From an uncultured Alphaproteobacteria bacterium (lineage in GTDB: Bacteria > Pseudomonadota > Alphaproteobacteria > CADEGL01): a DNA stretch of 64,000 nt. Location: contig CADEGL010000008.1 of the NCBI GenBank assembly GCA_902826885.1, forward strand, positions 10,819-74,818, in the 5' to 3' direction. Both the position numbers and the translations under genes were made by a program. The notes under the pieces were generated by a model. The model ran no database searches and was not told where the DNA came from. It saw only the letters and a program-made list of their open reading frames with translations. This document shows, one piece after another, positions 1 to 64,000 of this stretch. Within the stretch, counting starts at the first letter, position 1; each line of letters starts with the position of its first letter.

Positions 1-698
1 CCAGCCAAATGCGCCTAGCCTATGTACGTACGGGCAACGCCGAGGTCGACTACACGAGTCGTACGGGCCTGCAAGGGCTGCGAAAAGCCCTGCAAGATCG
101 CACGTCCGTGGAACTCGGCGACTCCCTGGAAGTCGATATCGCAAGGGACGAACTGGCGTTTTTTCCGATCCTGTACTGGCCCTTGGGCCGCGCGCCCTTG
201 ACCTTAACGCCGGACACGATCTCTCGTGTGTACGCGTACATTCGTAATGGTGGCATGATTCTGTTCGACACGCAAAATCAAGGCGGCATCGGGGCATCCA
301 CCCCAGACGCCAGCGTGCCCGGGCTCCAGCGCTTCCTGAGCCGGCTGAATCTGGCCCCCTTGGTCCCCATACCGGCGGACCATGTGCTGGCCCGCTCCTT
401 CTATCTGCTGTCGGAGTTCCCTGGCCGCTGGAATGCCGGCACGGTCTATGTCGAAGCCAAGGGCGACGGCAAGGATGACGAGGCTGTTTCCTCCATCATT
501 CTGGGTGGCAACGACTGGGCCGCGGCCTGGGCCGTCGGCGACCAGGGCCAGCCGCTGTTCCCCGTGGTGCCCGGCGGCGAGCGGCAGCGCGAGATGGCCT
601 ACCGCTTCGGCGTCAACGTCGTGATGTACGCATTGACCGGCAACTACAAGTCGGACCAAGTCCACCTGCGCTTCATCCTGGAGCGCCTGGGACAATGA
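1..698 (+). CDS. C-terminal part of a DUF4159-like protein from a BatA/MoxR-type ('aerotolerance'-like) operon; the 5' end lies outside the window
   Basis: The frame is open to the window edge. C-terminal motifs include ...GGNDWAAAWAV... and ...ALTGNYKSDQVHL.... The stop overlaps the next start as ATGA (695-698). Confidence 0.55.
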   Translation, partial: SQMRLAYVRTGNAEVDYTSRTGLQGLRKALQDRTSVELGDSLEVDIARDELAFFPILYWPLGRAPLTLTPDTISRVYAYIRNGGMILFDTQNQGGIGASTPDASVPGLQRFLSRLNLAPLVPIPADHVLARSFYLLSEFPGRWNAGTVYVEAKGDGKDDEAVSSIILGGNDWAAAWAVGDQGQPLFPVVPGGERQREMAYRFGVNVVMYALTGNYKSDQVHLRFILERLGQ

Positions 699-2773
699 AC
701 GCCAACGTCGCCAACATCGTCTGGTCGCCATTGGTTCCGTGGGAATTCCTGACCGCGCTCGGCATCCTGGCGGCCTTGATCCTTGTCTACGGCGCGTTTC
801 GGCGGGCGCGGGGTGTGATCTGGCGCGCGCTTTCCATCGCCATTCTTCTAGCGGCGCTGTTCAACCCCTCCCTCGTCTATGAAGAGCGCGAACCGCAGAG
901 CGACATCGCCGTGATCGTGGTGGATGATTCGCCGAGCCAGCAGATCGGCGACCGACGACAGAAGCGGGACGCGGCCCTGGCATCCATCGAACGGCGGCTC
1001 AGGAGCGAGCCGAACCTGGAGATGCGCGTCATTCATGCCGGCGCCGCCGCGCGCGACGGTGCCGATGATCCCGGCACCCGCTTGTTCGAAGCGGTCAGCC
1101 GCGCCTTGGGCGACGTGCCGCGCGAGCGTCTGGCGGGCGTGATTTTGCTGACGGACGGCCAGGTGCACGACGCCGACACGGCGGAATCTCTCGGGCTCAA
1201 GGCGCCCGTCCACGCGCTTCTGACCGGCGCGCGGAATGAAGCGGACCGCCGGCTGGTGGTCCAGGCCGGCTCGCCCTACGCTATCGTCGGCAAACCAATC
1301 GAGATCAAGTTCCGCGTCGAGGACGCGCCCGGCGCCAAGGGTACCGCACGCGTCACCATCCGCCGCGATGGCAACCCCGCGCGGACCGTGACCGTGCCGG
1401 TCAACGGCGAGGGCAAAGCGGAGATCACGCTCAACCGTGCGGGTCCCACGGTCCTCGAGATCGAAGCCGAACCAGGCCCCGACGAATTGACCCTCGACAA
1501 CAACCGCGCCGTCCTCACGCTCAATGGCGTGCGCGACCGCCTCAAGGTTCTCTTGGTTTCGGGCGAGCCCCATCCCGGCGAGCGGACGTGGCGCACCTTT
1601 CTGAAGTCCGACCCCTCGGTCGACCTCGTGCACTTCACTATCCTTCGGCCGCCGGAGAAGCAGGACAACACGCCATTGAACGAGCTGGCGCTGATCACAT
1701 TCCCCGTGCGTGAGCTATTCGAGGTGAAACTGAACCAGTTCGACCTGGTCATCTTCGACCGCTATCGCCGGCGCGGCGTGCTGCCCGTCAGCTACTACGC
1801 CAACATTGCCGAGTATGTGCGCAAGGGCGGTGGATTGCTGCTCGCGGCGGGCCCGCCCGATGCGACGTCGTTGAGCGCGTTCCAAACGCCTCTGGGCGAG
1901 GTATTGCCGGCGCAACCGACTGGACAAGTGATCGAGACCGGCTACCGGCCTGCTTTGACCACGTCGGGCAAACGGCACCCGGTGACCGCCGAATTATCGG
2001 GCGCTCCCGAAGGTGGCGAGAAATGGGGCCGCTGGTTCCGGCAGATCGAGGCCACGGCCAAGGGCGGCACGGTTCTGATGGAAGGGCCCGGCAAGCGCCC
2101 GCTGCTCATCCTGGCACGAGAGGGCGAAGGGCGCGTGGCCGTTCTTTTGTCCGACCAGATCTGGCTATGGGCGCGCGGCTTTGAGGGCGGAGGGCCCGAG
2201 GCCGAATTGTTGCGGCGCATCTCGCATTGGCTGATGAAGGAGCCCGAGCTGGAGGAAAACGATCTGCGCGCCTCGGTGCGGGGCAACCGGCTCGAGGTGG
2301 TGCGGCGGTCCCTTGAGACCGGCAAGAAGAGTGTGACCGTGATTGCGCCCAGCGGAAAGGAAACGACACTGGACCTGACCGAAGAGGCCGCGGGCCGCGC
2401 CATCGGCAGCATGCCGATCGAGGGGCCCGGCCTCTATCGCGTGAAGGACAAGAACAAGATCGCCTTCGCCGCCGCGGGCGCGCCCAATCCCCTGGAAAGT
2501 TCGGACGTGCGGACGACCGACGCGAAACTGGCGCCCATTGCCCAAGCGACGGGCGGTGGCATCTTCTGGTTGGCCGACGGGCAGCCCGAGATCCGCCGCC
2601 AAGCCGCCGGCCGGCCTATGAAAGGTGCGGCAAACGATTCCTGGCTGGGACTTCAAGCCAACGAGAGCTTCGTCGTGATGGGCACACGGCGCGTGCCCCT
2701 CGCGCCCGCTTTCGCAGTCCTGGCCCTGGTGCTCCTCCCCCTGGCCTTCGGCTGGTGGCGCGAAGGCCGCTGA
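695..2773 (+). CDS. Large membrane-anchored protein (N-terminal double TM, C-terminal TM anchor), terminal gene of the BatA/DUF4159-type operon
   Basis: 692 aa. Hydrophobic helices at the N terminus (LVPWEFLTALGILAALILVYGAF) and C terminus (LAPAFAVLALVLLPLAFGWW). Translationally coupled to the upstream gene. Confidence 0.6.
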   Translation: MNANVANIVWSPLVPWEFLTALGILAALILVYGAFRRARGVIWRALSIAILLAALFNPSLVYEEREPQSDIAVIVVDDSPSQQIGDRRQKRDAALASIERRLRSEPNLEMRVIHAGAAARDGADDPGTRLFEAVSRALGDVPRERLAGVILLTDGQVHDADTAESLGLKAPVHALLTGARNEADRRLVVQAGSPYAIVGKPIEIKFRVEDAPGAKGTARVTIRRDGNPARTVTVPVNGEGKAEITLNRAGPTVLEIEAEPGPDELTLDNNRAVLTLNGVRDRLKVLLVSGEPHPGERTWRTFLKSDPSVDLVHFTILRPPEKQDNTPLNELALITFPVRELFEVKLNQFDLVIFDRYRRRGVLPVSYYANIAEYVRKGGGLLLAAGPPDATSLSAFQTPLGEVLPAQPTGQVIETGYRPALTTSGKRHPVTAELSGAPEGGEKWGRWFRQIEATAKGGTVLMEGPGKRPLLILAREGEGRVAVLLSDQIWLWARGFEGGGPEAELLRRISHWLMKEPELEENDLRASVRGNRLEVVRRSLETGKKSVTVIAPSGKETTLDLTEEAAGRAIGSMPIEGPGLYRVKDKNKIAFAAAGAPNPLESSDVRTTDAKLAPIAQATGGGIFWLADGQPEIRRQAAGRPMKGAANDSWLGLQANESFVVMGTRRVPLAPAFAVLALVLLPLAFGWWREGR

Positions 2774-37457: not shown

Positions 37458-37583
37458 TCAGCCCTGGCGGGCCTTGAAGCGCGGGTTCTTCTTGTTGATG
37501 ACGTAGACGCGGCCGTGGCGGCGCACCACCCGGCAGTTCTTGTCGCGCTTCTTCATCGTCTTCAACGAATTCAGGACCTTCAT
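37458..37583 (-). CDS. rpmJ: 50S ribosomal protein L36 (Cys-less alphaproteobacterial type)
   Basis: Translated by hand: [41 protein letters not shown] (41 aa). RBS GAGGA. It is below the ORF-track size cutoff. Confidence 0.85.
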
Positions 37584-38498: not shown

Positions 38499-38882
38499 CT
38501 ATCCCCGCTTGATTTTCTCGACCGTCCGCAACGCCCCCAGGCCGAGCATTCCCGCCATGAGCTCCCAGAGTCCCGAGTCCAAGGACGGCGGCGGAGGCAC
38601 GGAAATTCCGTTCCAGGCCGCGATCCAAGTGCCGAGCGGTACCAGAAGATACTGATAGGCGAGCGCCGCCGCGCAGCACCAACCGATGGCGGGGCGCCAG
38701 CCGGCGACGAAGAGCGAGGCGTTCTTGGCCTCCTCGGCGTTCACCTCCATCTGCTTCAGATCGGCCGCGGCCAGTTGCGCCAGCGTTTCGCGCAGGGCGC
38801 GCTCGCGTGTGGCGGGGTCGGGCAACACGGCACCCAATACGCGGTCGAGGATGGGCACCAGGGCGGCGATCAGCGCGGGCAT
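38499..38882 (-). CDS. Phage holin (3-TM, GTA-release-type family)
   Basis: The N-terminus MPALIAALVPILDRV... and FVAGWRPAIGWCCAAALAYQYLLVPL resemble the Holin_3TM family. The ATG directly follows the endolysin TAG stop. Confidence 0.65.
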   Translation of the reverse strand: MPALIAALVPILDRVLGAVLPDPATRERALRETLAQLAAADLKQMEVNAEEAKNASLFVAGWRPAIGWCCAAALAYQYLLVPLGTWIAAWNGISVPPPPSLDSGLWELMAGMLGLGALRTVEKIKRG

Positions 38883-39359
38883 CTAGGTCTCCTTATAAGC
38901 GGACAAGAATTTCTCGACCGTGCCCTTGCCACCCGCGTTGTAATGGCGGACCCAATAGGCGGCGAGGCCGGACGCATCGTCCGCGCGCGGCAAGGGCAAC
39001 GGGCACATCCAGTATTTGAGCCGCGCGATGGCGCAGCCGAGGCGGTCATTATCGTAAAGCTGCTCGCCGGGCGTACGGTTGGGCAGCAACAAGCCGTTCA
39101 CGCGGCCGAGCAGCCCTGTGCGCCGCGGCAGATAGCGTCGATAGACGTCGTGGAACGTCGCGGGTTCGATCTGGAACAGCCCGCGCGCGGGACCGCCGCC
39201 GATTTGCCGCCGGTGGACCAGCCTGCTTTCGACCAGCGCCGTGCCGAGCATGAGGTTGGACGCCGCGCGCGAATAGAGGTCGAGCAGGCGCAGGACGGGG
39301 TCGATGACCTCCGCCCGGAAATCGTCGGGATTCATGGTTTGGAAATCGTCTCCAGACAC
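38883..39359 (-). CDS. Phage endolysin (lytic-transglycosylase-like)
   Basis: LGTALVESRL...GLFQIEPATF resembles the SLT catalytic E-S...GLMQ motif. GTG start. Adjacent to the holin. Confidence 0.6.
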   Translation of the reverse strand: MSGDDFQTMNPDDFRAEVIDPVLRLLDLYSRAASNLMLGTALVESRLVHRRQIGGGPARGLFQIEPATFHDVYRRYLPRRTGLLGRVNGLLLPNRTPGEQLYDNDRLGCAIARLKYWMCPLPLPRADDASGLAAYWVRHYNAGGKGTVEKFLSAYKET

Positions 39360-39605
39360 GCGGTCTTGCCGCGCAAATAGCGTTCGAGGATCTCGGCAGC
39401 CTTCACCACGCGCTCGGGCGCAGCACCGCGCGGCGCCATTTCGACGGCGCGCTCGAGCGCGAAGGCGCGGCGGCCTTCCGCCACCGCCTCCTTGGTGAGG
39501 CAGTCCAGGTATTCGCTCATGATGCGAGGAGCTTTCGTCTAAAGAGAGTATCGGTGCGCGACTCTCAAAATTTCCCCTCCCTCGTCGGGGAAGGGTGAAG
39601 TCGGG

Positions 39606-39863
39606 CTACGAGCCGGCCTTGAAGCGCAGCGCGGCGCGCAGGCCTTCCCACAGGAGATAGGCCAAGCCGGACAGCGCCATGCCCATGGCGGCCAGGCGCG
39701 TCTTGCGCGCCAGTTCCTCGCCGCCCATGCGCGTACGGCGCAGGAAGGCGAAGTCGCGCTGAAGGTCGAGGACGGAATCCGGCGCGTTCGCATCGAGTCC
39801 GAGCGTGGTCAGGGTCTCGCGCACCGTCTCGCGCACGATGCGGCGGATGTCGGCTTCGGTCAT
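39606..39863 (-). CDS. Small phage-associated protein with C-terminal TM helix (lysis-accessory or spanin-like)
   Basis: MTEADIRRIVRETV...LAAMGMALSGLAYLLW. It sits between the tail fiber and lysis genes. Confidence 0.4.
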   Translation of the reverse strand: MTEADIRRIVRETVRETLTTLGLDANAPDSVLDLQRDFAFLRRTRMGGEELARKTRLAAMGMALSGLAYLLWEGLRAALRFKAGS

Positions 39864-39873
39864 GACAAAGCTT

Positions 39874-41322
39874 TCAGGCGTCGCGGCCGCGCGGATCGCG
39901 CCAGCCCAGCGTCGCGATGCGGCATGCCACGTCGGCGCCGGAGCGCCGGCGGATCTGCGCGCTGGTATTGGTCCAGATGGCGGCGTTGCCGTGACAGGCG
40001 GTGGCCGTGCCGCCGGTCGATTCGCCGATCTGCGCCAGGGGCCCGGCCGTGCTGCTGGGCGCCTCGTCGTTGATGTCGGGATCGCTGAGATAAAGCCCCG
40101 TGTCGCCGACATAGGCCGACACCATGGCCTTCACCCGCAGGCCCGTGGGCACGGTCATCGTCGCCAGCACGGCGCTGGAACCGGAATTGTTGGTGTCGAC
40201 GTCAAGCGGCGGGTCCTTCCACCAGAACTCGTCGCCGCGCTGGACGAACGTCAACAGATTGCCCGAACCGTCGTTACGCACGGCGCCCAGGCGGCGCTTC
40301 TGCGTATAACCGGACGGCATCGTCGGCGCGGTGGCGCTGGCCGAGAACAGCACATCGACGACCTGCGTCGTCGGATTTCGGATGGCGTAGAGGTGATACC
40401 AGGTGGCGTTGGCCTCCGAGCCCGTGTCGAGTCCGCCCTGGTTGGTACCCGCGGCCCAGGCGGCATCCAGCCGTTTGGTGAGCGAAGCAGCGAGCACGAT
40501 GTTGGCCGCGTTGCCGTCGTCGCGGCAAGCGCCCGCCGCCACGTCGATATCGTTGTTGGCGTCCGAGCCGTTGTTGGACAGCATGAACCCGTCGATCTGC
40601 CCGCGCGGCAGAGGAATCTCCGCCCAGCCGGGATCAGTGCCGTCTGACAGCAGCACCCGTCCCACCGCGCCGACCGCCAGGCGCTGCGGCGCGCTGATAC
40701 CGCGTAGCACCAGGTCGCCGCGCGTGGTCAACACGTTCTTGAGCGCGCCGAGCGTGGCCAGCGCCGTGTCGGCATCCACATCGTCCAGCAGCGTGTTGAT
40801 GAAGGACGAGACAGGCCCCAGATCGGCGCTGGTGCCCGCAGCCGCAATGGCGCGGCCATTGGCGTCGAAGGCCAGGAACTTGGAGGCGCGCTCGACCGAG
40901 GACGGCAGATCGGCACTGAGAGATGTCGCATCGGTGGTCGGGAACTTGACGCTGCGCGCCAGCACTTCCTCGACCTCCTGCACCAGCATCACGGCGCGGT
41001 CGTGCGCCTCCTCGACCGAACCCGATGGGAACGGATCGTTGGGCGTCAGATCCACGCCTTGGGTGCGCGGCAGCACCCGGCGAATCGTCCACTGGACCGA
41101 CGCGGTGGGCGCCACCAGCGCCGTGACCGTGCCGGTTCCCCCGCCGCCGCCCGCGACCGTGTAGTGCGTTTCCAGCACCTTCGGCGTTTCCACGCCGGTC
41201 GCGACCGCGCGCTCGATCACCTGCAGGTCGGCGGCTTCGAAGAAGTTGAACGGCACGGCGAAGGACACGGTGGCGCCGTTGCCGGCATAGGTTGTCTTGC
41301 TGGTCGTGGAAGAGACAGTCAT
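39874..41322 (-). CDS. Phage tail fiber/host-recognition protein
   Basis: RBS GAGGAA. 482 aa rich in Gly/Thr/Ser/Asn. Low-complexity runs (GGGGGTGTVT) and a beta-rich C-terminus. It occupies the position of T7 gp17. Confidence 0.55.
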   Translation of the reverse strand: MTVSSTTSKTTYAGNGATVSFAVPFNFFEAADLQVIERAVATGVETPKVLETHYTVAGGGGGTGTVTALVAPTASVQWTIRRVLPRTQGVDLTPNDPFPSGSVEEAHDRAVMLVQEVEEVLARSVKFPTTDATSLSADLPSSVERASKFLAFDANGRAIAAAGTSADLGPVSSFINTLLDDVDADTALATLGALKNVLTTRGDLVLRGISAPQRLAVGAVGRVLLSDGTDPGWAEIPLPRGQIDGFMLSNNGSDANNDIDVAAGACRDDGNAANIVLAASLTKRLDAAWAAGTNQGGLDTGSEANATWYHLYAIRNPTTQVVDVLFSASATAPTMPSGYTQKRRLGAVRNDGSGNLLTFVQRGDEFWWKDPPLDVDTNNSGSSAVLATMTVPTGLRVKAMVSAYVGDTGLYLSDPDINDEAPSSTAGPLAQIGESTGGTATACHGNAAIWTNTSAQIRRRSGADVACRIATLGWRDPRGRDA

Positions 41323-41352
41323 GGGTTCCTCGTCGAATGGGGGCGCGTTTAA

Positions 41353-41805
41353 CTATTTTTTCCAATGAGCGGCTGCTCTTGACGCGCCGCCCAGAAGCGT
41401 GGAGCCCGCTTCCATGAAGCTCGACTGCATCGCCGCGCGGCCGCGCGTGCGCTGGCCGCCCGCGTCAGCCAAGCGGCCCCAGGATTCGAGCTCACCCCGG
41501 CGGCGCAGCGAGAGCGCGTCCATCTCGGCATCCGAAGCCGTGTCGCCCAGGACGTCGATGGGCGTGCCCTCCAAGGTCACGCCGGCATTGGCGTAACCGG
41601 CGCGCCGGGCGCCCAACGCGCGTTGTGCCTGCTCCCGCGACCGCGCCTCGTCGAAGGCGGCCTGGTCGCGCGCGGCCGCGGCATAGCCCTCGGAAATCGA
41701 GGCGTTGTACTTCGCCATCTTATTGGCCGAGACGCCCTGGGAGATTTGGTTCGCCGCGGTCAGCGCCGTACCCGCGATCATCGCGGCGATTTCGATTCCA
41801 CTCAT
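41353..41805 (-). CDS. T7 gp14-like internal virion protein B homolog
   Basis: The N-terminus MSGIEIAAMIAGTALTAANQISQGVSANKMAKYNAS parallels T7 gp14 (...AAAIPIAISGAQAISGQNAQAKMIAAQTAAG). The ATG overlaps the upstream stop (ATGA). Confidence 0.5.
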   Translation of the reverse strand: MSGIEIAAMIAGTALTAANQISQGVSANKMAKYNASISEGYAAAARDQAAFDEARSREQAQRALGARRAGYANAGVTLEGTPIDVLGDTASDAEMDALSLRRRGELESWGRLADAGGQRTRGRAAMQSSFMEAGSTLLGGASRAAAHWKK

Positions 41806-42245
41806 CTTGTCCTCGCATACAGCCAATAATCTCCTCCGCCGTGCAGCCCATAACGGCGCATCAGCCCTTCGCGCTCGAAACCCAGCGCGCGCAGGAATCG
41901 CGCGCCCGCATCATGGTCCGCGTGACAGCTGGCCTGGATACGGCGCAGGCCTTGCGCGCTCTCCAAATCGGCCAAGCCCCGCATGGCGGCGCGAAACAGA
42001 GCGATGGGGCGGTCCAGCGCCTCGAGCGAGAACACGGCCCAGGCCTCGCCCACGCCCGGCCATAGCGGCCGCACGCCCGCGCAGCCCGCGACGCGCCCGT
42101 CGATCAGGCCGGTGAAGGCACAACCGCGCACGGCATAAGGGTCCAATCGGTCGGCCAGCCAATCGCGGTAAAGCGCCAGCTCCGCCTGCGCCGGCTGCGG
42201 CGCGACACGGCGCAGATGGCGCGGTTCGAACGGAACGATTCGCAT
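41802..42245 (-). CDS. GNAT-fold-like protein in phage structural module (gp13 position)
   Basis: ...GLIDGRVAGCAGV...RFLRALGFEREGLMRRYG... has GNAT-like C-terminal motifs. The start is 1 nt after the gp12-like stop. Confidence 0.45.
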   Translation of the reverse strand: MRIVPFEPRHLRRVAPQPAQAELALYRDWLADRLDPYAVRGCAFTGLIDGRVAGCAGVRPLWPGVGEAWAVFSLEALDRPIALFRAAMRGLADLESAQGLRRIQASCHADHDAGARFLRALGFEREGLMRRYGLHGGGDYWLYARTR

Positions 42246-42246
42246 C

Positions 42247-44277
42247 TCAGCGCTCGTAGGTCGCAAGGCGCGGCATCACGGCCAGAAGCGTGAGCGGCAG
42301 CGGCTGGCTCTGGCGGATGATAATGGTGGCGTCCGCGCCATAGCCGCCGTCGAAGGCCACATACTTGTCACCCGTGAACAAGGGTGGCGCCCGGTCCATG
42401 GCATCTCCGCCGGCGCGGAACAGGATTTCGTCGAGATGCGCTTCGTCCGGGCCGATGCGGCCGCCCAGCGTATCCATGAAACGCAGCGTTACGCCCGCGA
42501 TGCGCTTGACCTGCCCTTGCGCCGTGCCGGCCATCGCGCCCGCTTCGGGGCGCAGGGTCTCGATATCCGTCGGATAGCCGAGCCCCACATGGACTTTGGA
42601 GGCGGGCCGTTGCAGCGCGATGGCGCCGCCCGTCACCACGGCATCCGGATGGGCCGCGCCGTCGGCCAGGACGGAGACGGTCTCGCCTTCCAGATGGCCA
42701 AGGCCGGACACACTTTCCACCGGCGCGCCGTCATAGGTCAGGCCGCAATCGACGAAGAAGGCGTCTGCCTGCACATGATCGCGGGAAAACACTTCTTCCA
42801 TGAACTCGATCGTGCGATGGGTTGCGCCCGCGACGGTGCGCTTCACCGAAAGCCAGAGCTGGTCGTGCCCGCCATCAGGCGACGGGATGACGGAAAGCGA
42901 TTCGACAACCGCCGGCCCGCCCGCGAACGATCCGCCCAGCATATGCCGGTGCCAGCCGATGACCTCCTGCTCGCGCTCGTAGGTCATGCCGAGCAAGACA
43001 CCGTCTTCGCGCACGCACCACAGCACCGGGTCGGGCTCCTGCGCATATTCGACCGCGACAATGCCGGGCCGCGCGATATGCTCGGCCAGAAGGGTCAGAT
43101 CGGGCGCCACGTATTTGTCGCGCTCGAAGGAATAGGCCAGCTCGCGCACCTGGCGGCCTGAGCGGGTGACGAACAGCGTGGCGTCGCCCGCCTCGCGCGG
43201 CGCGAGATCCGCGCAGCCATGGGCGCGATGCCGCCGCGTTTGGACCGTGGTGGGGGTGAGCGGCTGATCCAGCGTGGTCGCGCGTAAGATCCACAAGCCG
43301 CCGACCGTACCGATCTGCAGCACCTGGCCGGGGTTGAGCCAGCGGATGACGTTGACCTGGTTGGCGGCCAGCGTGAAGGCGATGCCGCTGTCGTCCGCCA
43401 CGACGCCGTCCGCGCCGCTCGGCGCCATGGTTTCGAAATCGCCCGATTTGGACGACCACACGGTCTGCGGCTGATGCGTCGAACCGGCCCACCAGAGACG
43501 TTCCTCGAAGAACGTCACCGCGGCGGGATAACCTGTGGTTACGGACCACGCACCCAATCGCCAAACGGCGACAGCGGAGGTGCTGCCGAAGGCCGACTTC
43601 ACATCGGCCGTCACCTGCGTTCCCGAGGTGTAGGCCGTGATCTTGGCGTTGCCCCAGGTCGAGCCGTGCTTGATGCGCACCAAGCGCCCCACGTCCGAGG
43701 CCGCGAACGGACTGTGGCCCGAGGCCGTGATCGTGATGCCAGCGCCTGTGGTGGCCGAGGGCGCCAGCGTTTTTCCTGCGTCCGTGTTCTCGTCGAGATA
43801 CGGCCCATCGAGAAAGTCGATGAGAGACAGGGACCACGACGTATGCGAGCTGCGCGTCAGCTTGCGCGGCGCATGGGACGGGTGGGCAATGTAGAGCGTA
43901 TCGGCCGACTGCGCGAATTTCAGTGCTGGCAGGTCGGCTTCGAGATACGGCGTCGCGATCTCGACCGCCGTGCCCGGTGGCGATTCGATTCGCCCCTCTT
44001 CCATGTAGAACCGGACATACTGATCGCCGAACTCCAGCACATAGGCCTGGGTAGTCGAGAACTCGAACGGCGCCAGGCGCACCGCTTTGGCATCGGTTTT
44101 GACCGGCGCGACAAATCTTGTGCCCGAGCGGCGCGCGATCGGCCCCTGCAAACGGACGATGCCGTTCAGAATCGTCTTGGCCGCGACCGCGTAAGGGCCT
44201 AGATCGACGCGCCCCTGCAGCAAGGGCGAAATCTCGCCGCGCGCGAAAGACGCCTGGATGGGATTGGCCTTGGGCAT
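42247..44277 (-). CDS. T7 gp12-like tail tubular protein B homolog (or other large tail/baseplate protein)
   Basis: RBS AGGAA. The N-terminus PKANPIQASFARGEISPLLQGRVDL resembles gp12 (ALISQSIKNLKGGISQQPDILRYPDQ). 676 aa. It is in a cluster containing a gp11-like gene. Confidence 0.5.
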   Translation of the reverse strand: MPKANPIQASFARGEISPLLQGRVDLGPYAVAAKTILNGIVRLQGPIARRSGTRFVAPVKTDAKAVRLAPFEFSTTQAYVLEFGDQYVRFYMEEGRIESPPGTAVEIATPYLEADLPALKFAQSADTLYIAHPSHAPRKLTRSSHTSWSLSLIDFLDGPYLDENTDAGKTLAPSATTGAGITITASGHSPFAASDVGRLVRIKHGSTWGNAKITAYTSGTQVTADVKSAFGSTSAVAVWRLGAWSVTTGYPAAVTFFEERLWWAGSTHQPQTVWSSKSGDFETMAPSGADGVVADDSGIAFTLAANQVNVIRWLNPGQVLQIGTVGGLWILRATTLDQPLTPTTVQTRRHRAHGCADLAPREAGDATLFVTRSGRQVRELAYSFERDKYVAPDLTLLAEHIARPGIVAVEYAQEPDPVLWCVREDGVLLGMTYEREQEVIGWHRHMLGGSFAGGPAVVESLSVIPSPDGGHDQLWLSVKRTVAGATHRTIEFMEEVFSRDHVQADAFFVDCGLTYDGAPVESVSGLGHLEGETVSVLADGAAHPDAVVTGGAIALQRPASKVHVGLGYPTDIETLRPEAGAMAGTAQGQVKRIAGVTLRFMDTLGGRIGPDEAHLDEILFRAGGDAMDRAPPLFTGDKYVAFDGGYGADATIIIRQSQPLPLTLLAVMPRLATYER

Positions 44278-44342
44278 GGGAGTTTCCTACAAAAGCACAT
44301 GAAAAAGCCGCGCGGGCTTATGCGGCGCGGCGGGAGGAGCGG

Positions 44343-44753
44343 ATGGATATTCGGAATTACGAAAGTCGGGACAGGACCGCCGTGATCGCCCTATGGCAGG
44401 CGTGCGGCCTGGTTGTGCCGGGCAAGAACGACCCCGAAGCCGATATCGACTTCGCGGTTGCCAGCCAGGATGCGGAAGTTCTCGTCGGCGTGGTCGACGG
44501 CAAAATCGCCGCGACCGCGATGGTTGGCCACGACGGGCACCGGGGCTGGCTCTACTACGTCGCCGTCGCGCCCTCGCGCCAGAAATCCGGCTTGGGCCGG
44601 GAGATGGTCGAGGCCGCCGAAGAATGGCTGCGCCAACGCGGCGCGCCCAAGGCCCAGCTCATGATCCGCGAAACGAATACGCAAGTGGAGGCGTTCTACG
44701 CGAGGCTGGGCTACGCGACGATACCGCGCATCGTGATGCAGAAGGCGCTATAG
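44343..44753 (+). CDS. GNAT-family N-acetyltransferase
   Basis: RBS GGGAGGAG. Acetyl-CoA motif VAVAPSRQKSGLGREMVEAAEEW. It lies opposite to the flanking phage genes. Confidence 0.85.
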   Translation: MDIRNYESRDRTAVIALWQACGLVVPGKNDPEADIDFAVASQDAEVLVGVVDGKIAATAMVGHDGHRGWLYYVAVAPSRQKSGLGREMVEAAEEWLRQRGAPKAQLMIRETNTQVEAFYARLGYATIPRIVMQKAL

Positions 44754-44769
44754 GCACTATAATACCGCC

Positions 44770-45198
44770 ATGCGAAAGCCGGACCCTCTATGGCAGAGAA
44801 TCGCATTCGTCGTCGGGATCGGGCTGTTTGCCGGTGTGATGAAGTTCATAGCCCGGGATGCATCCGATTGGATTGCTTTCGGTGCACCGGCCTGGGACGC
44901 CGCGCTCGCGATATTCCTGTTCTGGATGCAGCTGGCGCCGGTCGTCGCGGCCGGCATTTGGATCAACGAGCGGCTTAAGTCGGGCCAAACGACCCAGAAG
45001 CAGGTGGACCGATTCTGCAGAATTCTTTTGCCCGCCGTATTAGTCCCCCTCGCTTATGACTTCTTCCACTCCTTCAAGATGTCCGCCGACATGCAGGCAA
45101 TATTTTTAGCCGCGATCTGCGTGTGGGCGTTGTTTGCGTTGTGGGTGACGGGTCAGTTCACCGCGAAAAGCCCTGCTCCGCCCGGCGCGGAAAGGTAG
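44770..45198 (+). CDS. Hypothetical 4-TM membrane protein (lower-GC, likely horizontally acquired)
   Basis: Four hydrophobic helices. Local GC about 55-57% with A/T-rich codons (ttt, tta, ata), atypical for the window. Confidence 0.45.
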   Translation: MRKPDPLWQRIAFVVGIGLFAGVMKFIARDASDWIAFGAPAWDAALAIFLFWMQLAPVVAAGIWINERLKSGQTTQKQVDRFCRILLPAVLVPLAYDFFHSFKMSADMQAIFLAAICVWALFALWVTGQFTAKSPAPPGAER

Positions 45199-45205
45199 AG
45201 CACAC

Positions 45206-46288
45206 TCACTTTCCGGACCGTACCTTCTCGACCTCGTCGCGAGCGCTTTGGTAAGCCTCGATCGCGTCGTGAATATTTACGCCCTTCCACGCCAGCTTCA
45301 GGGCAGGCGGTGCGAGCGCAACCAACTTATCGATGCCAAACGCCTTGTCCTCAGCTGAATCTAGAAGCACGTCTCCTATCACTTTCTTTATGACGTACAG
45401 GCTCAGTTCCCGATCAGCCTGCGCCAGCTGTTCTTGCGACTTAACATCATTCGGATCGACATCGAGCGCCTTCTTGGCGGCCCAGTAATCCTTTCCGATG
45501 TTTTCCGGTGTCCTCGCCTCTCGTGGTTCGCCAACGTTCTGAACGTCCTTGTACCGATCACGATCGGCCGCGATGACTGCGGCATCCGGAAAGCCGAACG
45601 CTTGGCCCGCGCGTTTGATGTCCAGCGCGGACTGCGCGCGCACCCTGGGGGCGGGTTTTGGGCCGGCCTCATGGCGCCAGCCTTCACGCGCGCGTTGTTC
45701 GAATGCCTCGCGATCCGCCGGCACGCCATCGGGCGCTCCGAAGCCGTTCCCCATGGGCATTTTCGGCATGATCTCGACCGTAAATCGATCCATCGCCGCG
45801 GCCGGATCGGCTTCCAGGCCGAAGGCGTGGGCGCGATGCGCCTCCAGCGCGGCTTGCCGTAGGATTTCGTTTCGCGGGTGGCCGTCGCTGGCGCGGGCCA
45901 ATCGGCCAAGCTCCTCTATGCGCGCCTGATAGGCTTCCTGAAGCGCCGCACGCTCGCGTACATCATTCTCCCGCTCGAAGGCGGCGGCATGGGTGTCGGC
46001 GAGAGACGTGAAATCACGCAGGAACAACGCGCGGCCGGTTCGGTCGTCGGCCAACCCGTCGGCGAGTTGCCGGCCGATGGCTTCGACCTCGTCGCGGAAC
46101 CGGCCGGGCGCCGCGGCCCAATCCGTGGCTTGGCCGAAACGTGCCTGCAAATTGCCGAGCGTCCGCGCGGCGCTTGCCGAGGTTTGCAGCAGGCGTCCGT
46201 ACCGGCGCCGCGCTTCCGTGTCGTCGAGCAAAGCCGGCGCGCTGGGTGCGGCTTGCACGATATCCTCGGGCACAATGATGGTGGACAT
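45206..46288 (-). CDS. Phage hypothetical protein (scaffold/internal-protein-like, helical, charged)
   Basis: Strong RBS GAGGAGAAAAG. It follows the gp11-like gene. The 3' third has lower GC. Confidence 0.5.
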   Translation of the reverse strand: MSTIIVPEDIVQAAPSAPALLDDTEARRRYGRLLQTSASAARTLGNLQARFGQATDWAAAPGRFRDEVEAIGRQLADGLADDRTGRALFLRDFTSLADTHAAAFERENDVRERAALQEAYQARIEELGRLARASDGHPRNEILRQAALEAHRAHAFGLEADPAAAMDRFTVEIMPKMPMGNGFGAPDGVPADREAFEQRAREGWRHEAGPKPAPRVRAQSALDIKRAGQAFGFPDAAVIAADRDRYKDVQNVGEPREARTPENIGKDYWAAKKALDVDPNDVKSQEQLAQADRELSLYVIKKVIGDVLLDSAEDKAFGIDKLVALAPPALKLAWKGVNIHDAIEAYQSARDEVEKVRSGK

Positions 46289-46297
46289 CTTTTCTCC

Positions 46298-46867
46298 TCA
46301 CAACCGCGCCAGCAGCCATTCCTCGGCGGTCAGCACATCCGGCGTTCCTTCCTGCGCGTCCGCCGTCCGCGCCTCCGCGAGCTTGCGTTCATAGAGGAGC
46401 CGCATGGCTTCCCCCATGGACGAACTTTGCTTCAGCGGCTCGGCCAGCTCCGCCGCGAGCCGCGCGGCAAGCGCTTCGCGAAACAGGGCCGGGAATTCGT
46501 TGGGGTCGGTGACACGCCGCAGATAGAGCACGCGCAGGGGCGCGCCGGCGTCGGTCAGGATGCGGCGGCCCTCGACCTTCCATTCAGCTTCCGTGTCCTC
46601 GAGACGCAGAACACGCAGGCAATAGTCGGGCGACGTCGGCAGCGGATAGGCGTTGGCGTAGCCCCAGACGGGCGAGGCCGCGTCGGCCGCGAGTTCGGCG
46701 CGCGCCAGCGCGAAGTTCCAGGGATGCGCCTGGATCACCGAATCGCGCAGCTCGTCGAAGACGGCGTGGGCCAGGCGCGCGGGCTTGGCGCCCTCGGATA
46801 AAGACGTGATGGTCGCCTCGCCGAGCTTGATCAGCGCGGCGTTGACGATGCCGACGGTGGAGGCCAT
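46298..46867 (-). CDS. T7 gp11-like tail tubular protein A homolog
   Basis: RBS AGGAG. The N-terminus VNAALIKLGEATITSLSEGAKPARLAHAVFDELRDSVIQAHPWNF parallels T7 gp11 ([46 protein letters not shown]). Confidence 0.7.
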   Translation of the reverse strand: MASTVGIVNAALIKLGEATITSLSEGAKPARLAHAVFDELRDSVIQAHPWNFALARAELAADAASPVWGYANAYPLPTSPDYCLRVLRLEDTEAEWKVEGRRILTDAGAPLRVLYLRRVTDPNEFPALFREALAARLAAELAEPLKQSSSMGEAMRLLYERKLAEARTADAQEGTPDVLTAEEWLLARL

Positions 46868-46929
46868 CGGTCGCTCCTATGGTTTTTGGGAATAAAAGAC
46901 GTGCGGAGGCGGTAAAGGCGCGGGCGCGG

Positions 46930-47160
46930 TCAGACGCGCTCGCGGCAATAGGCCTGGATTTCTTCGGCCGAGAACGCGAGGCCGTCCGGCCCCTCGACGC
47001 GCAGCACCGTGCCGCCGCGCGCAAGCGTACGGCAGGCGAAGAACAATGCACCGTCGAGATTCGGAAAACGAACCGTCTCGGCCCCGGCGTTGCCCAACCG
47101 CGCGAATTGCTCCGGCGCGGCGCCGGAATATTGGACGAAGAAACGCCAGGCTTCGGTCAC
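46930..47160 (-). CDS. Small hypothetical protein in phage module
   Basis: 76-aa ORF collinear with flanking phage genes. No recognisable motif. Confidence 0.3.
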   Translation of the reverse strand: MTEAWRFFVQYSGAAPEQFARLGNAGAETVRFPNLDGALFFACRTLARGGTVLRVEGPDGLAFSAEEIQAYCRERV

Positions 47161-47360
47161 ACCCTGCTCACCCCGCGGTTGAAATCCGCATGTGCCGTGC
47201 CTGAGCGACGGAGCGCATCGGTGGGGCTTGCCGGCTGGACGCCGGTTTGGTTGGCCGTCTTAGTGGCAAACTTATCCGCAAAATCCGGGCCACGTGCCGG
47301 GCGGATTCCCAGAGAAAAGCGCGGAAATCCGCCCGACATCAAGGGAACGGGACGGCGCGC

Positions 47361-47867
47361 CTAGTTCCCGGGCATCACCACCTCGATGTCGAGGCTGATG
47401 GTGCCGCCGGTGGAACCGACCGTGTTGCCGGTCAGCGCCAGGTCGTACCAAAGGTTCGGATCGGACGAGAGGCCGGCATCCTGCCAGACCTTCTTCTCGA
47501 CGTTGGCGACGTCGCGGGCCTCGAAGCCGATCTGCACACCGGCCGTATCGGCCGAGGCCAGCGAGACAGCGGAGGCATAGGCGTCGGCGTCCACCACGGC
47601 GCCGCCGTCCACAGCCGTGCGGTAAAGGCCGAGATCGTAGCTGGTACCGCCGGTGACCGCGTCGTGAAACTTGCGCACGCCTTTCACCAGCCAGGACGAA
47701 TGAACCCGTGCCATGCGGTAGACCGACCCGTCATTGTCCGAGGCACCCTGCTCCACCGTCGCGCGCAGGCATTTCACCTTGCCGCCCGCGATCTGGAGGT
47801 CGTTGAGCACCTGGGGGCTCGCGTCGGCGTTGGCGACCGACGCGCTTTTCGTATTGACCACTGCCAT
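47361..47867 (-). CDS. Phage structural protein (possible decoration/minor capsid protein)
   Basis: RBS GGGAG. 168 aa, beta-rich. Immediately downstream of the capsid-like gene. Confidence 0.45.
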   Translation of the reverse strand: MAVVNTKSASVANADASPQVLNDLQIAGGKVKCLRATVEQGASDNDGSVYRMARVHSSWLVKGVRKFHDAVTGGTSYDLGLYRTAVDGGAVVDADAYASAVSLASADTAGVQIGFEARDVANVEKKVWQDAGLSSDPNLWYDLALTGNTVGSTGGTISLDIEVVMPGN

Positions 47868-47973
47868 TGGAAAAACTCCCGATGAGGATGAAGGAAATCC
47901 GGCGCGGCGGAGCCGTGGCGGCGGGTGGTCCCGCCTTCGTCCACCGACGATGCGGCGGCCGCGCCGGAAAGGG

Positions 47974-48837
47974 TCAGGCTTCGGTGCAGAGGATCTCGAC
48001 CACGGATTTTTCCTGCATCCGGACGGCCCCGATCGACATGCTGAAATAGACCTGCATGGCGTAGGACTTGTCCGGCCGGTCGGAGATGTTGGCCTTCACG
48101 TCCTTGCCGATGGCAAGCAGCAGGCCCGATTTGCGCCAGGCGATGCAGCGCCGGTTGCCCGACGAAGTGCCGAGACGCTGGGTGCGGACGAACTTGAAGC
48201 CCAGGAACGTATCGATCTCGCCCCGCGCCAAGGCCTTGACCGTGTTGTAGTCGGCGCTCTTGACCTCCGTCGTGTTCAACAGATTGGTCACCTGTTTGGC
48301 CGAACAGGCCACATAGCGCGGCTCGTCCGGGTCGTTCTCCTCGGCATCGAGCAGCTCCTTGGCCGAGAGAAGCTTGGCCAAGGTCATGCCCGAGGCGGAC
48401 GCGCCCACCTGCATGCCGGAATCGAACGGCGTCGCGACTGAGCCTGTCTCTCCGGTGTAGGCGGTGGCAAAGGACGCAGCGATCAAAACATCGTCGATCG
48501 CCCGGCCCATGGCCGCGGCCGCGCCCTCCTGATAGGGCGAGGTGAACTCGTTCAAGGTGCGGACCTTGTCCTGGTCGTCGACCAGGTCGGCCCATTCGTA
48601 GTCGACCAAGGTGACGCGGCGCCGCGCGTGCGGCGTGTCGATCTGCGGCGTGTCCGCGTGGCGCACGAGGCGCGGCACGGCGGCGGTGATGCCGATCTGG
48701 TCGAAATAGGCGTTCTTGGCGTGGACGCCCGTCTCCACCCGCACCGCATCGCGCAGCCGGCTACCCTTCTGTTGGACGAGCAGCTCGACGCCCGAGCGGT
48801 ACTGCTGGACGAACGAAGTCGTGATTTGGGTGCTCAT
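47974..48837 (-). CDS. Putative phage major capsid protein (HK97-fold-like)
   Basis: RBS GGAGGG. 287 aa. First gene of the collinear structural block. The call rests on position and composition only. Confidence 0.45.
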   Translation of the reverse strand: MSTQITTSFVQQYRSGVELLVQQKGSRLRDAVRVETGVHAKNAYFDQIGITAAVPRLVRHADTPQIDTPHARRRVTLVDYEWADLVDDQDKVRTLNEFTSPYQEGAAAAMGRAIDDVLIAASFATAYTGETGSVATPFDSGMQVGASASGMTLAKLLSAKELLDAEENDPDEPRYVACSAKQVTNLLNTTEVKSADYNTVKALARGEIDTFLGFKFVRTQRLGTSSGNRRCIAWRKSGLLLAIGKDVKANISDRPDKSYAMQVYFSMSIGAVRMQEKSVVEILCTEA

Positions 48838-49141
48838 GTGAGCCCTCCGTCAGTTGCCGTTGGTTTTTCGGACTGGCGAAGAGGTTGCCCGCACATAAAA
48901 TTCGCGGACCTTTTCTTGCGCGCTGACGCGGCGCCGCTCGCGGCCTGCTTTCAGGCGGTCACCAGGGCCTCACGGTTGTCCCAGGGAAACTCGTCAGTGT
49001 TTCGGATCTTTGCGGACGTAGAAGCGGACTCTTTTTCCACCTCACCCGCTCGCACCCTCCCCTTCGGCGGAGAGAGTCGGGGCGAAATGGTCTATCCACG
49101 CGCACGCGACTCGCGCGGGGTGAACAGCGTAAGATGATGGC

Positions 49142-62148: not shown

Positions 62149-63228
62149 TTAAGGCACATCGCGAGACGGCGACGGCGGTATCATCTGGAAAGGCTTTGAA
62201 GACCCCGAGAGCGCGCGCCCCGTCGTCAGCGGACATTGCGATTTTGCGTGACGCTGCGCTTCCTGCAGCAGGGGAAGAAACTCTTTTTCGTAGTTTGCAA
62301 GTTCTGCTTTGTATTCAGCGGAAGTCGGGGGAATCCGACCCTCCCAGATCGGCCAATTCGTTCTGCGCCGCCGCGCCTCGGCGATCGTGTCACGATAGAC
62401 CCGCATCGCCGTGGGAATGTCGCCGGCTTGGATCGCGTCCCAGATTCCACCCATCCGCCTAACCATAAAATTTTGAAGGCTGTAAGGCTCCTCGCCATCG
62501 CTTCGTTGCCAAAAGGATTTCATGGAGGCCCGATAGAACTCGGCATTGTCGCGGCAGGCCGGCGCGTAATGGCCATTACGCCATGCCAAGAGCATCTCTG
62601 GCATGATGTAACAGACCCCGCACGTGTCGTATGAAAACTTCTTATCAAGATCCTTGGTCAGCAAGATGAGCGTCTTGCCGTCGTTCGGAAAGGCGACTCG
62701 CGCCACATTGCCGAACTGCCCGGGCGTAATGTTCTTCGGCACATCGCCCAAGCGGATGATGAGAACGGTTTGATCGTCATCCGAAGAGCCACCGGGTGAG
62801 GCCAGCACGAACAGCACTGGGACCCCATCGCCAAAGATGTCATGCCCGGTCGGGACGACAACCCACACGATGTCGCCCCCATATCCCTCCAAATACTTCG
62901 CGCTCGGATTGCCGACTTTATTCTTCTCGATGCGGTGAATTTCTATGACGCTGTCGAAGTCATCTCCGTACCATTTCGTCACCAAATAGCTCGGGCCGCT
63001 ATCACCACGGAAAAGATAGTGCCGGTATAAACTGCGAGACATCCTTGCAGACTGAAGCTTATCCAGCATTGCTGGAAGCCATGCTGGCTCCTCTTCCGCG
63101 CGATACACCATGGGGCCGGGCAGTTCTTCGTATTCCCGGTTCCAATTGTTGTAATCGGTAAGATCGAAGGCAGCCGCGGGCGCCACCATGGCGGCCAGGA
63201 AGGCGAAAACCAGAAATACCGCTCTCAT
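62149..63228 (-). CDS. Secreted hypothetical protein with conserved Cys pairs (paralog B, lower GC)
   Basis: Signal peptide MRAVFLVFAFLAAMVAPAAA. CGVCY, APACRD, CPLT. The 5' leader ccggggatttccATG is duplicated from paralog A. Confidence 0.6.
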   Translation of the reverse strand: MRAVFLVFAFLAAMVAPAAAFDLTDYNNWNREYEELPGPMVYRAEEEPAWLPAMLDKLQSARMSRSLYRHYLFRGDSGPSYLVTKWYGDDFDSVIEIHRIEKNKVGNPSAKYLEGYGGDIVWVVVPTGHDIFGDGVPVLFVLASPGGSSDDDQTVLIIRLGDVPKNITPGQFGNVARVAFPNDGKTLILLTKDLDKKFSYDTCGVCYIMPEMLLAWRNGHYAPACRDNAEFYRASMKSFWQRSDGEEPYSLQNFMVRRMGGIWDAIQAGDIPTAMRVYRDTIAEARRRRTNWPIWEGRIPPTSAEYKAELANYEKEFLPLLQEAQRHAKSQCPLTTGRALSGSSKPFQMIPPSPSRDVP

Positions 63229-63351: not shown

Positions 63352-64000
63352 CTACCGGAACGCCTCGATGTGCTCCTTCTCATTTCCGTATGGCCCTTTG
63401 ATCCTCGCTTGGATCAGGGCATCCCGAAGCATCGCGCCATATCCCGCACGTTCGAGAGCTCGGATCGCGGCGATGGATTGAGGTCCGACGATCTGTCCCG
63501 CTTGATAGGTCTGCAACCCCAGCCGGGCCGCCTCGCCGTCTTTGCCGAGTTCCGTGATGACAGCACCGAGCGCCTTGCCGACCCTCTGCGCGCCGCCGGT
63601 TCGCCCTTCACGGAAGAGAACGTCCGCGACGGCCGCCGCGGTGTTCCAATCGCCAATCTCGTTCAGAGCCTCCATCCCTCCGGCCTCCTTCAGCGCGCCA
63701 TTGAGATAGCTGCGATACACGGCAGCCACCTGCGCATGGCCGAGGTCTTTTGGATCGTTCGGCAAGCCGGCTAACGCGCGATCCTCTTTTTTCAGATCGC
63801 GAAGCGTGCTCGACATAATACCCGCGAAAGCGCTGCTATCCGGGTTCTTCTTCATACCGCCCTCGGCCGCGAAGATACGGCCATAAACGTGGCGTTCGGT
63901 GTCCGTCACGCCAGGCAGGCGTGCAACAACATCGTTGAATCGTACCCAATGATCTCGTACGCCCGGTACATCCTTCTTTCCGGCAGGCGGCTCCGAAACC
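63352..64000 (-). CDS. Hypothetical protein, 5'-truncated by window end (weak resemblance to GH108/peptidoglycan-binding N-terminal motif)
   Basis: The frame stays open to position 64000, so the GTG at 63909 is not necessarily the start. ...EGGMKKNPDSSAFAGI... is loosely similar to EGGYVNDPDDPGGxTxxGI. Confidence 0.4.
   Translation of the reverse strand, partial: VSEPPAGKKDVPGVRDHWVRFNDVVARLPGVTDTERHVYGRIFAAEGGMKKNPDSSAFAGIMSSTLRDLKKEDRALAGLPNDPKDLGHAQVAAVYRSYLNGALKEAGGMEALNEIGDWNTAAAVADVLFREGRTGGAQRVGKALGAVITELGKDGEAARLGLQTYQAGQIVGPQSIAAIRALERAGYGAMLRDALIQARIKGPYGNEKEHIEAFR

Follow-up and report, generated by a model that had tools for sequence, protein, structure and literature searches.

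A capsid, tail and lysis block in an alphaproteobacterial chromosome as part of a putative gene-transfer-agent-like array of short-tailed phage descent

Gene content and expression signals of the block

A block of phage-derived genes (also called the module) at positions 38499-48837 was analysed in a 64,000-nucleotide stretch of DNA, referred to as the window (65% G+C), from an uncultured bacterium. The hosts are uncultured metagenome-assembled genomes labelled 'Alphaproteobacteria bacterium'. Loci and contigs used for comparison carry L numbers, L019 and L021 being stretches of the sibling genome GCA_050183015.1. The block encodes a capsid protein, the two tail tubular proteins A and B (tube A, or adaptor; tube B, or nozzle), a GNAT-fold protein, a gp14-like protein, a fibre, a lysin and a holin (Table 1). 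These identities had been proposed in an earlier reading of the sequence alone (the original prediction), and all except that of the lysin were confirmed by profile searches (PF19821, phrog_394, phrog_376 and others). The genes listed there are real; the list omitted the 360-amino-acid (aa) open reading frame (ORF). The minus-strand genes are tightly packed with ATGA-type overlaps, in agreement with the translational coupling that had been proposed. The accompanying statement that all genes lie on the minus strand had to be given up, because a GNAT acetyltransferase gene and a membrane protein gene on the plus strand interrupt the series.

Table 1. Positions of the block's genes and of associated features in the window
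Feature	Position	Strand	Match or remark
Type B ribosomal protein L36 gene (ykgO-like)	37458-37583	-	
sX6 small RNA match (Rfam), overlapping the L36 gene	37370-37568	-	sub-threshold
Holin, three transmembrane helices	38499..38882	-	PF11351 E 1e-17; phrog_3427 E 7e-22
Lysin, 150 aa from Met9	38883..39335	-	putative lysozyme/lytic-transglycosylase-like fold; phrog_3108 E 2e-36
62-aa conserved small ORF	39332..39520	-	57-97% identity in L004, L006, L008
85-aa protein, C-terminal membrane helix	39606..39863	-	kept after fibre in chromosomal copies
Tail fibre, 482 aa	39874..41322	-	T7-fibre-type N-domain, phrog_1640 E 1e-28
gp14-like internal virion protein	41353..41826, likely start 41805 (ATGA overlap)	-	phrog_418 E 2e-28
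GNAT-fold virion protein, gp13 position	41802..42266, likely start 42245	-	phrog_4177 E 1e-28
Tail tubular protein B/nozzle (gp12 equivalent), 676 aa	42247..44277	-	phrog_376 E 8e-221
Cargo: cellular-type GNAT acetyltransferase	44340..44753	+	PF00583 E 3e-17; common to L003, L006, L021
Cargo: 142-aa membrane protein	44770..45198	+	ORF call; no family match
360-aa ORF	45206..46288	-	paralogue, N-domain of lysozyme-bearing internal virion protein
Tail tubular protein A/adaptor (gp11 equivalent), 189 aa	46298..46867	-	phrog_394 E 1e-49; Pfam Tube E 0.006
76-aa conserved small ORF	46930..47160	-	found in L003, L006; two 76-aa genes called in L021
168-aa protein after capsid gene	47361..47867	-	virion protein, placed alike in all relatives
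Major capsid protein, 287 aa	47974..48837	-	PF19821 E 7e-89; phrog_3437 E 4e-83
Structured 5' leader of capsid gene	48838..48990	-	three hairpins, then GGAGG ribosome-binding site
Secreted protein, 404 aa	60921-62135	-	no family match
Secreted protein, 359 aa, paralogous to the preceding	62149-63228	-	no family match
GH108-like (lysozyme-type) gene, 3' part	63352..64000	-	frame open to window end; upstream-half gene

The capsid protein is 72% identical to that of the uncultured phage-like contig L018 and 55% identical to that of pelagiphage Skadi. The 168-aa protein, for which sequence searches returned neither a family nor a PDB match, has homologues at the same position in L017 (46% identity) and L018 (35%); its ratio of nonsynonymous to synonymous substitution rates (dN/dS) is 0.05. 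The nozzle (7280 homologues) matches PDB entry 8ck1_A ('Tail Nozzle', E 4e-116). The GNAT-fold virion protein was also matched by phrog_308 ('internal virion protein', E 6e-8) and by PF00583 (E 3e-4), and the gp14-like protein was weakly matched by PF24072 (T7_gp14, E 0.038). The fibre gene begins 30 nt past the gp14-like gene, and its N-domain is 77% identical to that of the L018 fibre. The 360-aa protein resembles the N-terminus of L019 p407, which carries GH108 and PG_binding domains (42% identity over 180 aa), and the internal virion protein (IVP) IVP536 of L018 (35% over 91 aa); its gene is present in the window and in L003, and absent from L006 and L021. None of the module proteins was given a name by NCBIfam.

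The lysin had been described as an SLT-like endolysin. No named family and, in sequence search, no PDB entry matched it. Its AlphaFold model (predicted local distance difference test score 96) returned SLT-type enzymes as all of its top Foldseek matches, each of them weak (probability up to 0.98, E 0.07 and template-modelling score ~0.45 at best); lytic transglycosylases and lysozymes were the only classes matched. Sequence comparison showed an invariant Glu-Ser, with Glu36 invariant in an alignment of 34 homologues. The weak structural matches suggest a lysozyme/lytic transglycosylase-like fold. The holin belongs to PF11351, the type used in the release of the gene transfer agent (GTA) RcGTA. 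Three further conserved ORFs (76, 85 and 62 aa) are assigned to the block from their conservation. For the 85-aa protein, direct homologues were found in L003 and L006 (dN/dS 0.055); L009 and L010 have similar-sized genes with a similar N-terminal sequence after the fibre region, as read by eye, and L012 and L016 have 85-aa genes at the same position, matched by size and position alone.

The capsid gene is preceded by a leader of ~150 nt, the 23-nt core of which (GGTGACCGYCTGAAAGCAGRCCG) recurs exactly in L004 (2131-2153), L006 (1361-1383) and L008 (3737-3759). Compensatory changes were seen in its hairpins (for example GCCTG/CAGGC, GTCTG/CAGAC and GCCCG/CGGGC). The phage-like contigs L017 and L018 have this layout too, and it can be recognised in L011, L014, L016, L015 and the Ralstonia phage RpY1; no Rfam family matches the leader. 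It may act as a stabiliser, a processing signal or a regulatory RNA for phage late mRNA. Its conservation with compensatory changes, and its occurrence in L017 and L018, suggest that expression signals have been maintained along with the genes. A scan for sigma-70 promoters and terminators gave results at chance level.

Relatives of the block and the upstream packaging half

All module ORFs are intact in the window. In the comparison with L006, dN/dS was 0.05-0.25 for all module genes at dS values of 0.2-0.56, and 0.08-0.20 for the flanking host genes; in that with L003 the module genes gave 0.09-0.41. The value for nnrS was left out as an alignment artefact, and dS against L004/L008, the lineage with a 70% identical nozzle, is near saturation. 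L006 (nozzle 94% identical to that of the window) has the same flanks, the same GNAT insertion and the same rearrangements. L004 and L008 carry the same block, with all ORFs intact, beside a homologous 134-aa gene and the L36 gene; their block adjoins glcDEF directly, and the window's glcDE lies ~7.5 kb further on. Because the same architecture is found in at least five independent assemblies, it is not a product of mis-assembly. The conservation and synteny check suggested with the original prediction therefore recovered the same block in siblings, in L004/L008 and in other lineages. Intact ORFs, low dN/dS and an architecture that recurs in several chromosomal lineages uphold its view that the genes are maintained and domesticated rather than decaying. 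In the pairs L004/L008, L011/L014 and L009/L010 the capsid is much more conserved (91-97%) than the nozzle (77-82%), suggesting that the head is under tighter constraint or that the tail adapts more rapidly.

Homologues of portal, TerL and scaffold were found neither in window positions 1-38 kb nor in 38.5-63 kb. The claim that packaging genes are missing from the immediate flanks thus holds for the flanks. The further premise of an orphan without portal and terminase was overturned by the sibling genome, in which these genes lie upstream in the same array, on the same strand and behind cellular islands. Two stretches of one 217-kb sibling contig were read on the same strand. At 155-172 kb the order is a DUF5681-like gene in the small-terminase position, TerL, a 433-aa tail protein, cargo, portal, further cargo including a caspase-like protein, Bbp19, scaffold/protease and a 407-aa protein composed of an IVP N-domain, a GH108 domain and a peptidoglycan-binding domain. 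The full-length TerL and the portal are each 67% identical to their L018 counterparts. Approximately 21.5 kb of cellular genes separate this packaging half from the capsid gene (193.75 kb), which is followed by the gene for the 168-aa protein, by two genes for 76-aa proteins and by tube A; 5.6 kb of cargo then precedes tube B. The distance from terminase to holin is ~53 kb. The 9.3 kb of the contig outside the stretches read corresponds to window 50.6-60.1 kb, which is cellular there. As side observations, the caspase-like protein (Peptidase_C14, 500 aa; L019 12153-13655) lies between portal and Bbp19, and two paralogous proteins of 305 and 311 aa stand with the 433-aa phage tail protein (phrog_5939) between TerL and portal (L019 7415-9344).

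A search with the L018 portal found protein P0158 (66% identity) on a 92,366-bp NCBI contig, which, being exactly equal in length to the window's own contig, we infer to be that contig. P0158 is 94% identical to the sibling's portal, a level equal to that of the nozzle, so that the packaging half appears to be constrained likewise. The idea of a module truly truncated at the capsid gene was dropped after this search; in L004 and L008 the contig breaks off on the upstream side, which makes them uninformative on portal loss. Window 60.1-62.1 kb could be aligned with the right-hand end of the packaging half in the sibling. The GH108-like gene at the window edge (30% identity over 215 aa to L008_p371; weak Pfam GH108 match, E 0.029) is predicted to be the first visible gene of the array's head and packaging half. 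L008_p371 itself lies ~2.8 kb upstream of the L008 capsid gene, ahead of p206, p188, Bbp19 and the protease. The tandem 404- and 359-aa genes are placed between the GH108-like gene and the cellular island; their stretch has 68% nucleotide identity to the sibling versus 94-98% for neighbouring genes, and appears to have been replaced locally or to be evolving rapidly.

Among isolated phages, those closest to the element are the HTVC010P-type pelagiphages (nozzle 48%) and RpY1, and not the T7 group; of the T7-like label in the original prediction, the adaptor and nozzle homology survives. In these phages terL is followed by portal, protease, capsid, a set of small proteins, tube A, tube B and an acetyltransferase, after which come the gp14-like protein, three large internal virion proteins and the fibre. 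L017 and L018 are closer to the window (capsid 68-72%, nozzle 65-67%) and have the same order; L018, the one of the two that reaches the fibre, has 8.7 kb from tube B to fibre. The genomes of phages with homologous capsids are 34-43 kb long. Chromosomal copies with cellular genes on either side occur in six lineages and occupy at least four different sites: the window group, L004/L008, L012/L013, L009/L010 (Pelagibius, Kiloniellaceae; L009 is carried by Pelagibius sp. Alg239-R121), L011/L014 and L016. L011 and L014 are compact, their capsid gene being immediately preceded by terS, terL, portal, Bbp19, protease and a GH108 protein.

Chromosomal copies and phages were separated by the region after tube B. 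In each of the ten chromosomal loci the fibre N-domain begins 0.6-1.1 kb past tube B, an arrangement seen in none of 59 phage-like contigs (54 metagenome or viral contigs that extend 4 kb or more beyond tube B, and five reference phages and phage-like contigs). Correspondingly, the 6.5-8 kb ejection-protein block is absent from 10/10 chromosomal copies and kept in 59/59 phage-like contigs. No window gene matched the large internal proteins of L015, L018 or Skadi; the two largest ejection proteins are absent, and the reported lack of large gp15/gp16-type proteins is thereby borne out. Where metagenome or viral loci extend 6 kb or more upstream of the capsid, a portal gene lies there in 50 of 51. 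Census distances from tube A to tube B were left out on account of split high-scoring segment pairs.

Simple neighbour-joining trees, which cover few lineages (six), placed L017 and L018 as sister to the window and L004/L008 group (bootstrap 198-200/200), and L012 outside that clade despite its location at the same ykgO-glcDEF site. From these placements, loss of the ejection block seems to have occurred more than once; recombination between phages and resident elements may have contributed. Simple vertical descent of all ykgO-glcDEF copies was dropped as an explanation, because L012 falls outside the clade that includes L017 and L018. The L012 locus also carries, ~3-6 kb upstream of its capsid gene, a CI/LexA-like repressor gene (HTH_3 and Peptidase_S24; 253-957, minus strand) and a shortened protease-like gene (2109-2849), with a CitMHS transporter gene between the latter and the capsid gene. 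The repressor may be a leftover regulator of the L012 element.

Interpretation as a domesticated array and rival explanations

On the basis of gene content and order, it is considered moderately probable that the block forms the capsid, tail and lysis portion of a domesticated, GTA-like array that is fixed in the chromosome and derives from an HTVC010P-type (L018-like) short-tailed phage. Such an array would run on one strand from a small-terminase-like gene through TerL, portal, Bbp19, scaffold/protease and a short lysozyme-bearing virion protein to the capsid half, which would consist of capsid, 168-aa protein, adaptor, nozzle, GNAT protein, gp14-like protein, fibre, lysin and holin. Several islands of ordinary cellular genes have drawn the array apart. 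The phage order (terS-terL-portal-protease-capsid-tubeA-tubeB-GNAT-gp14...fibre) is preserved, with island interruptions, in the sibling and the window. An array of ~53 kb that lacks the large ejection proteins, and in which the stretches read contain no genes for replication, integration or lysogeny, cannot be a phage genome. The original prediction had proposed that portal, terminase and integrase genes just outside the window would mark an ordinary prophage. Portal and terminase genes do lie upstream in the sibling, but they belong to this long and mostly cellular array, and the rule does not carry over to it.

In the mode of action proposed from the genes, the host would control the making of short-tailed phage-like particles, which would be filled with host DNA by headful packaging and released by holin-lysin lysis. 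The particle would keep the gp14-like outer-membrane protein and a peptidoglycan hydrolase and would be devoid of the large ejection proteins. In T7, proteins of the gp15/gp16 type form a channel to the cytoplasm. Because such channel proteins are missing, DNA would reach the periplasm only, as with RcGTA, which delivers DNA to the periplasm, where competence proteins of the recipient take it up. A broader proposal is offered tentatively, namely that the arrays constitute a new, independently evolved GTA family, domesticated repeatedly in Alphaproteobacteria from HTVC010P-type phage, each time with loss of the large ejection proteins and with periplasmic delivery, the genes becoming scattered once co-packaging was no longer needed.

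If this holds, a podovirus-derived element that is kept by selection while cellular genes split it would be a further independent domestication. A fibre gene directly after the gp14-like gene would serve as a simple genomic signature for finding more such elements, and a testable idea emerges on the reason for which proteins that bring DNA through the inner membrane are lost from domesticated particles. To our knowledge, the GTAs with known genes come from long-tailed or otherwise different phage lineages, and the known tailocins from long-tailed phages. A literature search of limited coverage found no description of a podovirus- or HTVC010P-type GTA, nor of such an array.

Several observations weigh against the domesticated-array explanation. 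No CtrA-type site (TTAA-N7-TTAA) was found in the window; the single LexA-type site (GAAC-N7-GAAC) lies inside the fibre gene, at chance level. The protease gene is present in L008 and missing from its close relative L004; together with the patchy 360-aa gene, this indicates that some erosion is continuing. Because L017 and L018 branch inside the chromosomal group, vertical inheritance is clear only within window/L003/L006 and within L004/L008. The portal and the rest of the upstream half are attributed to the window genome through the sibling and P0158. Purifying selection on structural genes could serve a non-particle function, and replication or integrase genes could sit in another, more distant island.

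The strongest rival, considered unlikely, is an old defective prophage that makes no particles and whose structural and lysis genes are retained because they bring the host some other benefit, either interference with related infecting phages (poison subunits, triggered lysis) or use by related phages as a recombination reservoir. Left-edge erosion that differs between close relatives (the protease of L008, not of L004) would fit it, as would defence- or toxin-antitoxin-like cargo at the tube A/tube B junction (RmrA-like in L021; DUF4258 and a helix-turn-helix (HTH) protein in L016). The capsid leader is common to real phages, and an infecting relative could therefore switch the genes on; the nesting of L017 and L018 in the chromosomal clade would likewise fit gene exchange. 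However, selection covers the whole particle set, including the portal (94% between siblings) and the sibling's full-length TerL, and not one or two genes, and the same gene subset is kept in six lineages. We know of no interference system that needs ~15 intact virion genes.

A bacteriocin-like 'podo-tailocin', the particles of which would puncture the envelope of competitors by means of the gp14-like pore protein and the lysozyme-bearing protein, DNA transfer being irrelevant, is regarded as improbable. It would account for the loss of the DNA-conducting ejection proteins alongside retention of gp14, GH108 protein, fibre and lysis cassette, and for the variation of the fibre C-terminal region between lineages. 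The element resembles tailocins (R- and F-type pyocins) in combining a domesticated phage tail module and a lysis cassette. Known tailocins, which come from long-tailed phages, have shed capsid, portal and terminase, whereas all three are retained and conserved here; the comparison with tailocins drawn in the original prediction was therefore abandoned.

An active temperate podovirus with unusually large moron islands would explain the full set of head, packaging, tail and lysis genes and the S24 repressor near the L012 copy. It is very improbable in view of the array length (compared with genomes of 34-43 kb), the lack of a replication module in the stretches read, islands that carry a histidine kinase, permeases, a cyclase and dehydrogenases, the absence of the large ejection proteins, and the lack of an integrase or a tRNA; a scan of the window for tRNA was empty, as had been stated earlier. 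An orphan capsid-tail-lysis module with portal and terminase nowhere, whether a decaying remnant or a self-sufficient novel particle, is hardly credible: the window itself contains no portal, TerL or scaffold homologue in the regions given above, but in the sibling these functions (portal, TerL, protease) are encoded on the contig and strand of the capsid gene, upstream of it, P0158 lies on the 92,366-bp contig, and dN/dS is far below 1.

Comparison with known systems bears on the origin and on the mode of action. The element shares with HTVC010P-type phages (HTVC010P, Skadi, RpY1) and L017/L018 the capsid (55-72%), adaptor, nozzle (48-67%), GNAT and gp14-like proteins, the fibre N-domain (77% with L018), the sibling's TerL and portal (67%), the gene order and the capsid leader. 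Unlike these phages it has, in the stretches read, no replication or early genes; it lacks the 6.5-8 kb internal virion block, is split by cellular islands and occupies a fixed chromosomal position common to sibling genomes. With T7-like phages (Autographiviridae) it has in common gp11 and gp12 equivalents next to the capsid; of gp14, gp15 and gp16, only a gp14-like protein stands between nozzle and fibre, and no T7-type single-subunit RNA polymerase was found among the window genes.

As in a GTA, the regions read hold chromosomal genes for head, packaging, tail and lysis and none for replication or integration, and host inheritance under purifying selection is seen at the sibling level (same flanks and insertions; dN/dS 0.05-0.25). 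RcGTA is similar in its host-kept phage structural and packaging genes without replication genes and in its release by a lysin and a PF11351-type holin. It differs in being siphovirus-like, with unrelated head and tail families, a compact ~15 kb cluster plus separate loci, and a small head. The element would thus work like a GTA but lies outside the RcGTA family, holin family PF11351 being all that is shared. In BaGTA, the terminase, portal, capsid and fibre genes are interspersed with other genes along 20-25 kb of the chromosome, and their divergence parallels that of the host (PMC3610622). Compared by gene sizes and description, BaGTA is similar in the dispersal of conserved phage genes among other chromosomal genes, and different in its portal (620 aa), its presumed capsid gene (~372 aa), the lack of a reported tube A or B and its tie to a run-off replication origin.

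Cargo genes and the chromosomal neighbourhood

Outside the block, window 1-37 kb contains cellular genes only. Window 49-62 kb is cellular as well; among its products are a methyltransferase, a LOG-family protein, cytochrome b, a permease and a histidine kinase, together with a LysR regulator, a luciferase-like oxidoreductase, a metallo-beta-lactamase-fold protein and a dehydrogenase. The L36 gene marks a conserved right-hand neighbourhood of the element in L004, L008 and L012. The overlapping sX6 match (33.5 bits versus a gathering score of 40) was the only match in an Rfam scan of 36-51 kb. A plasmid origin was considered and rejected, the L36 gene being the only match.

Both plus-strand cargo genes sit between tube A and tube B. 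This junction is a recurrent insertion point with unrelated cargo across lineages and resembles a prophage defence hot spot (window 44278-46297; L021 12921-18517; L012 8167-10000; L016 3461-4405). Nothing was returned by PADLOC for the window cargo, the RmrA-like gene being confined to the sibling's island. The cargo consists of the GNAT acetyltransferase, the membrane protein and the 360-aa gene in the window; of an RmrA-like HTH protein with an M78 peptidase, ArsA and others in the sibling (L021); of a major facilitator superfamily transporter with DUF2937 in L012; and of a DUF4258/HTH pair, toxin-antitoxin- or defence-like, in L016.

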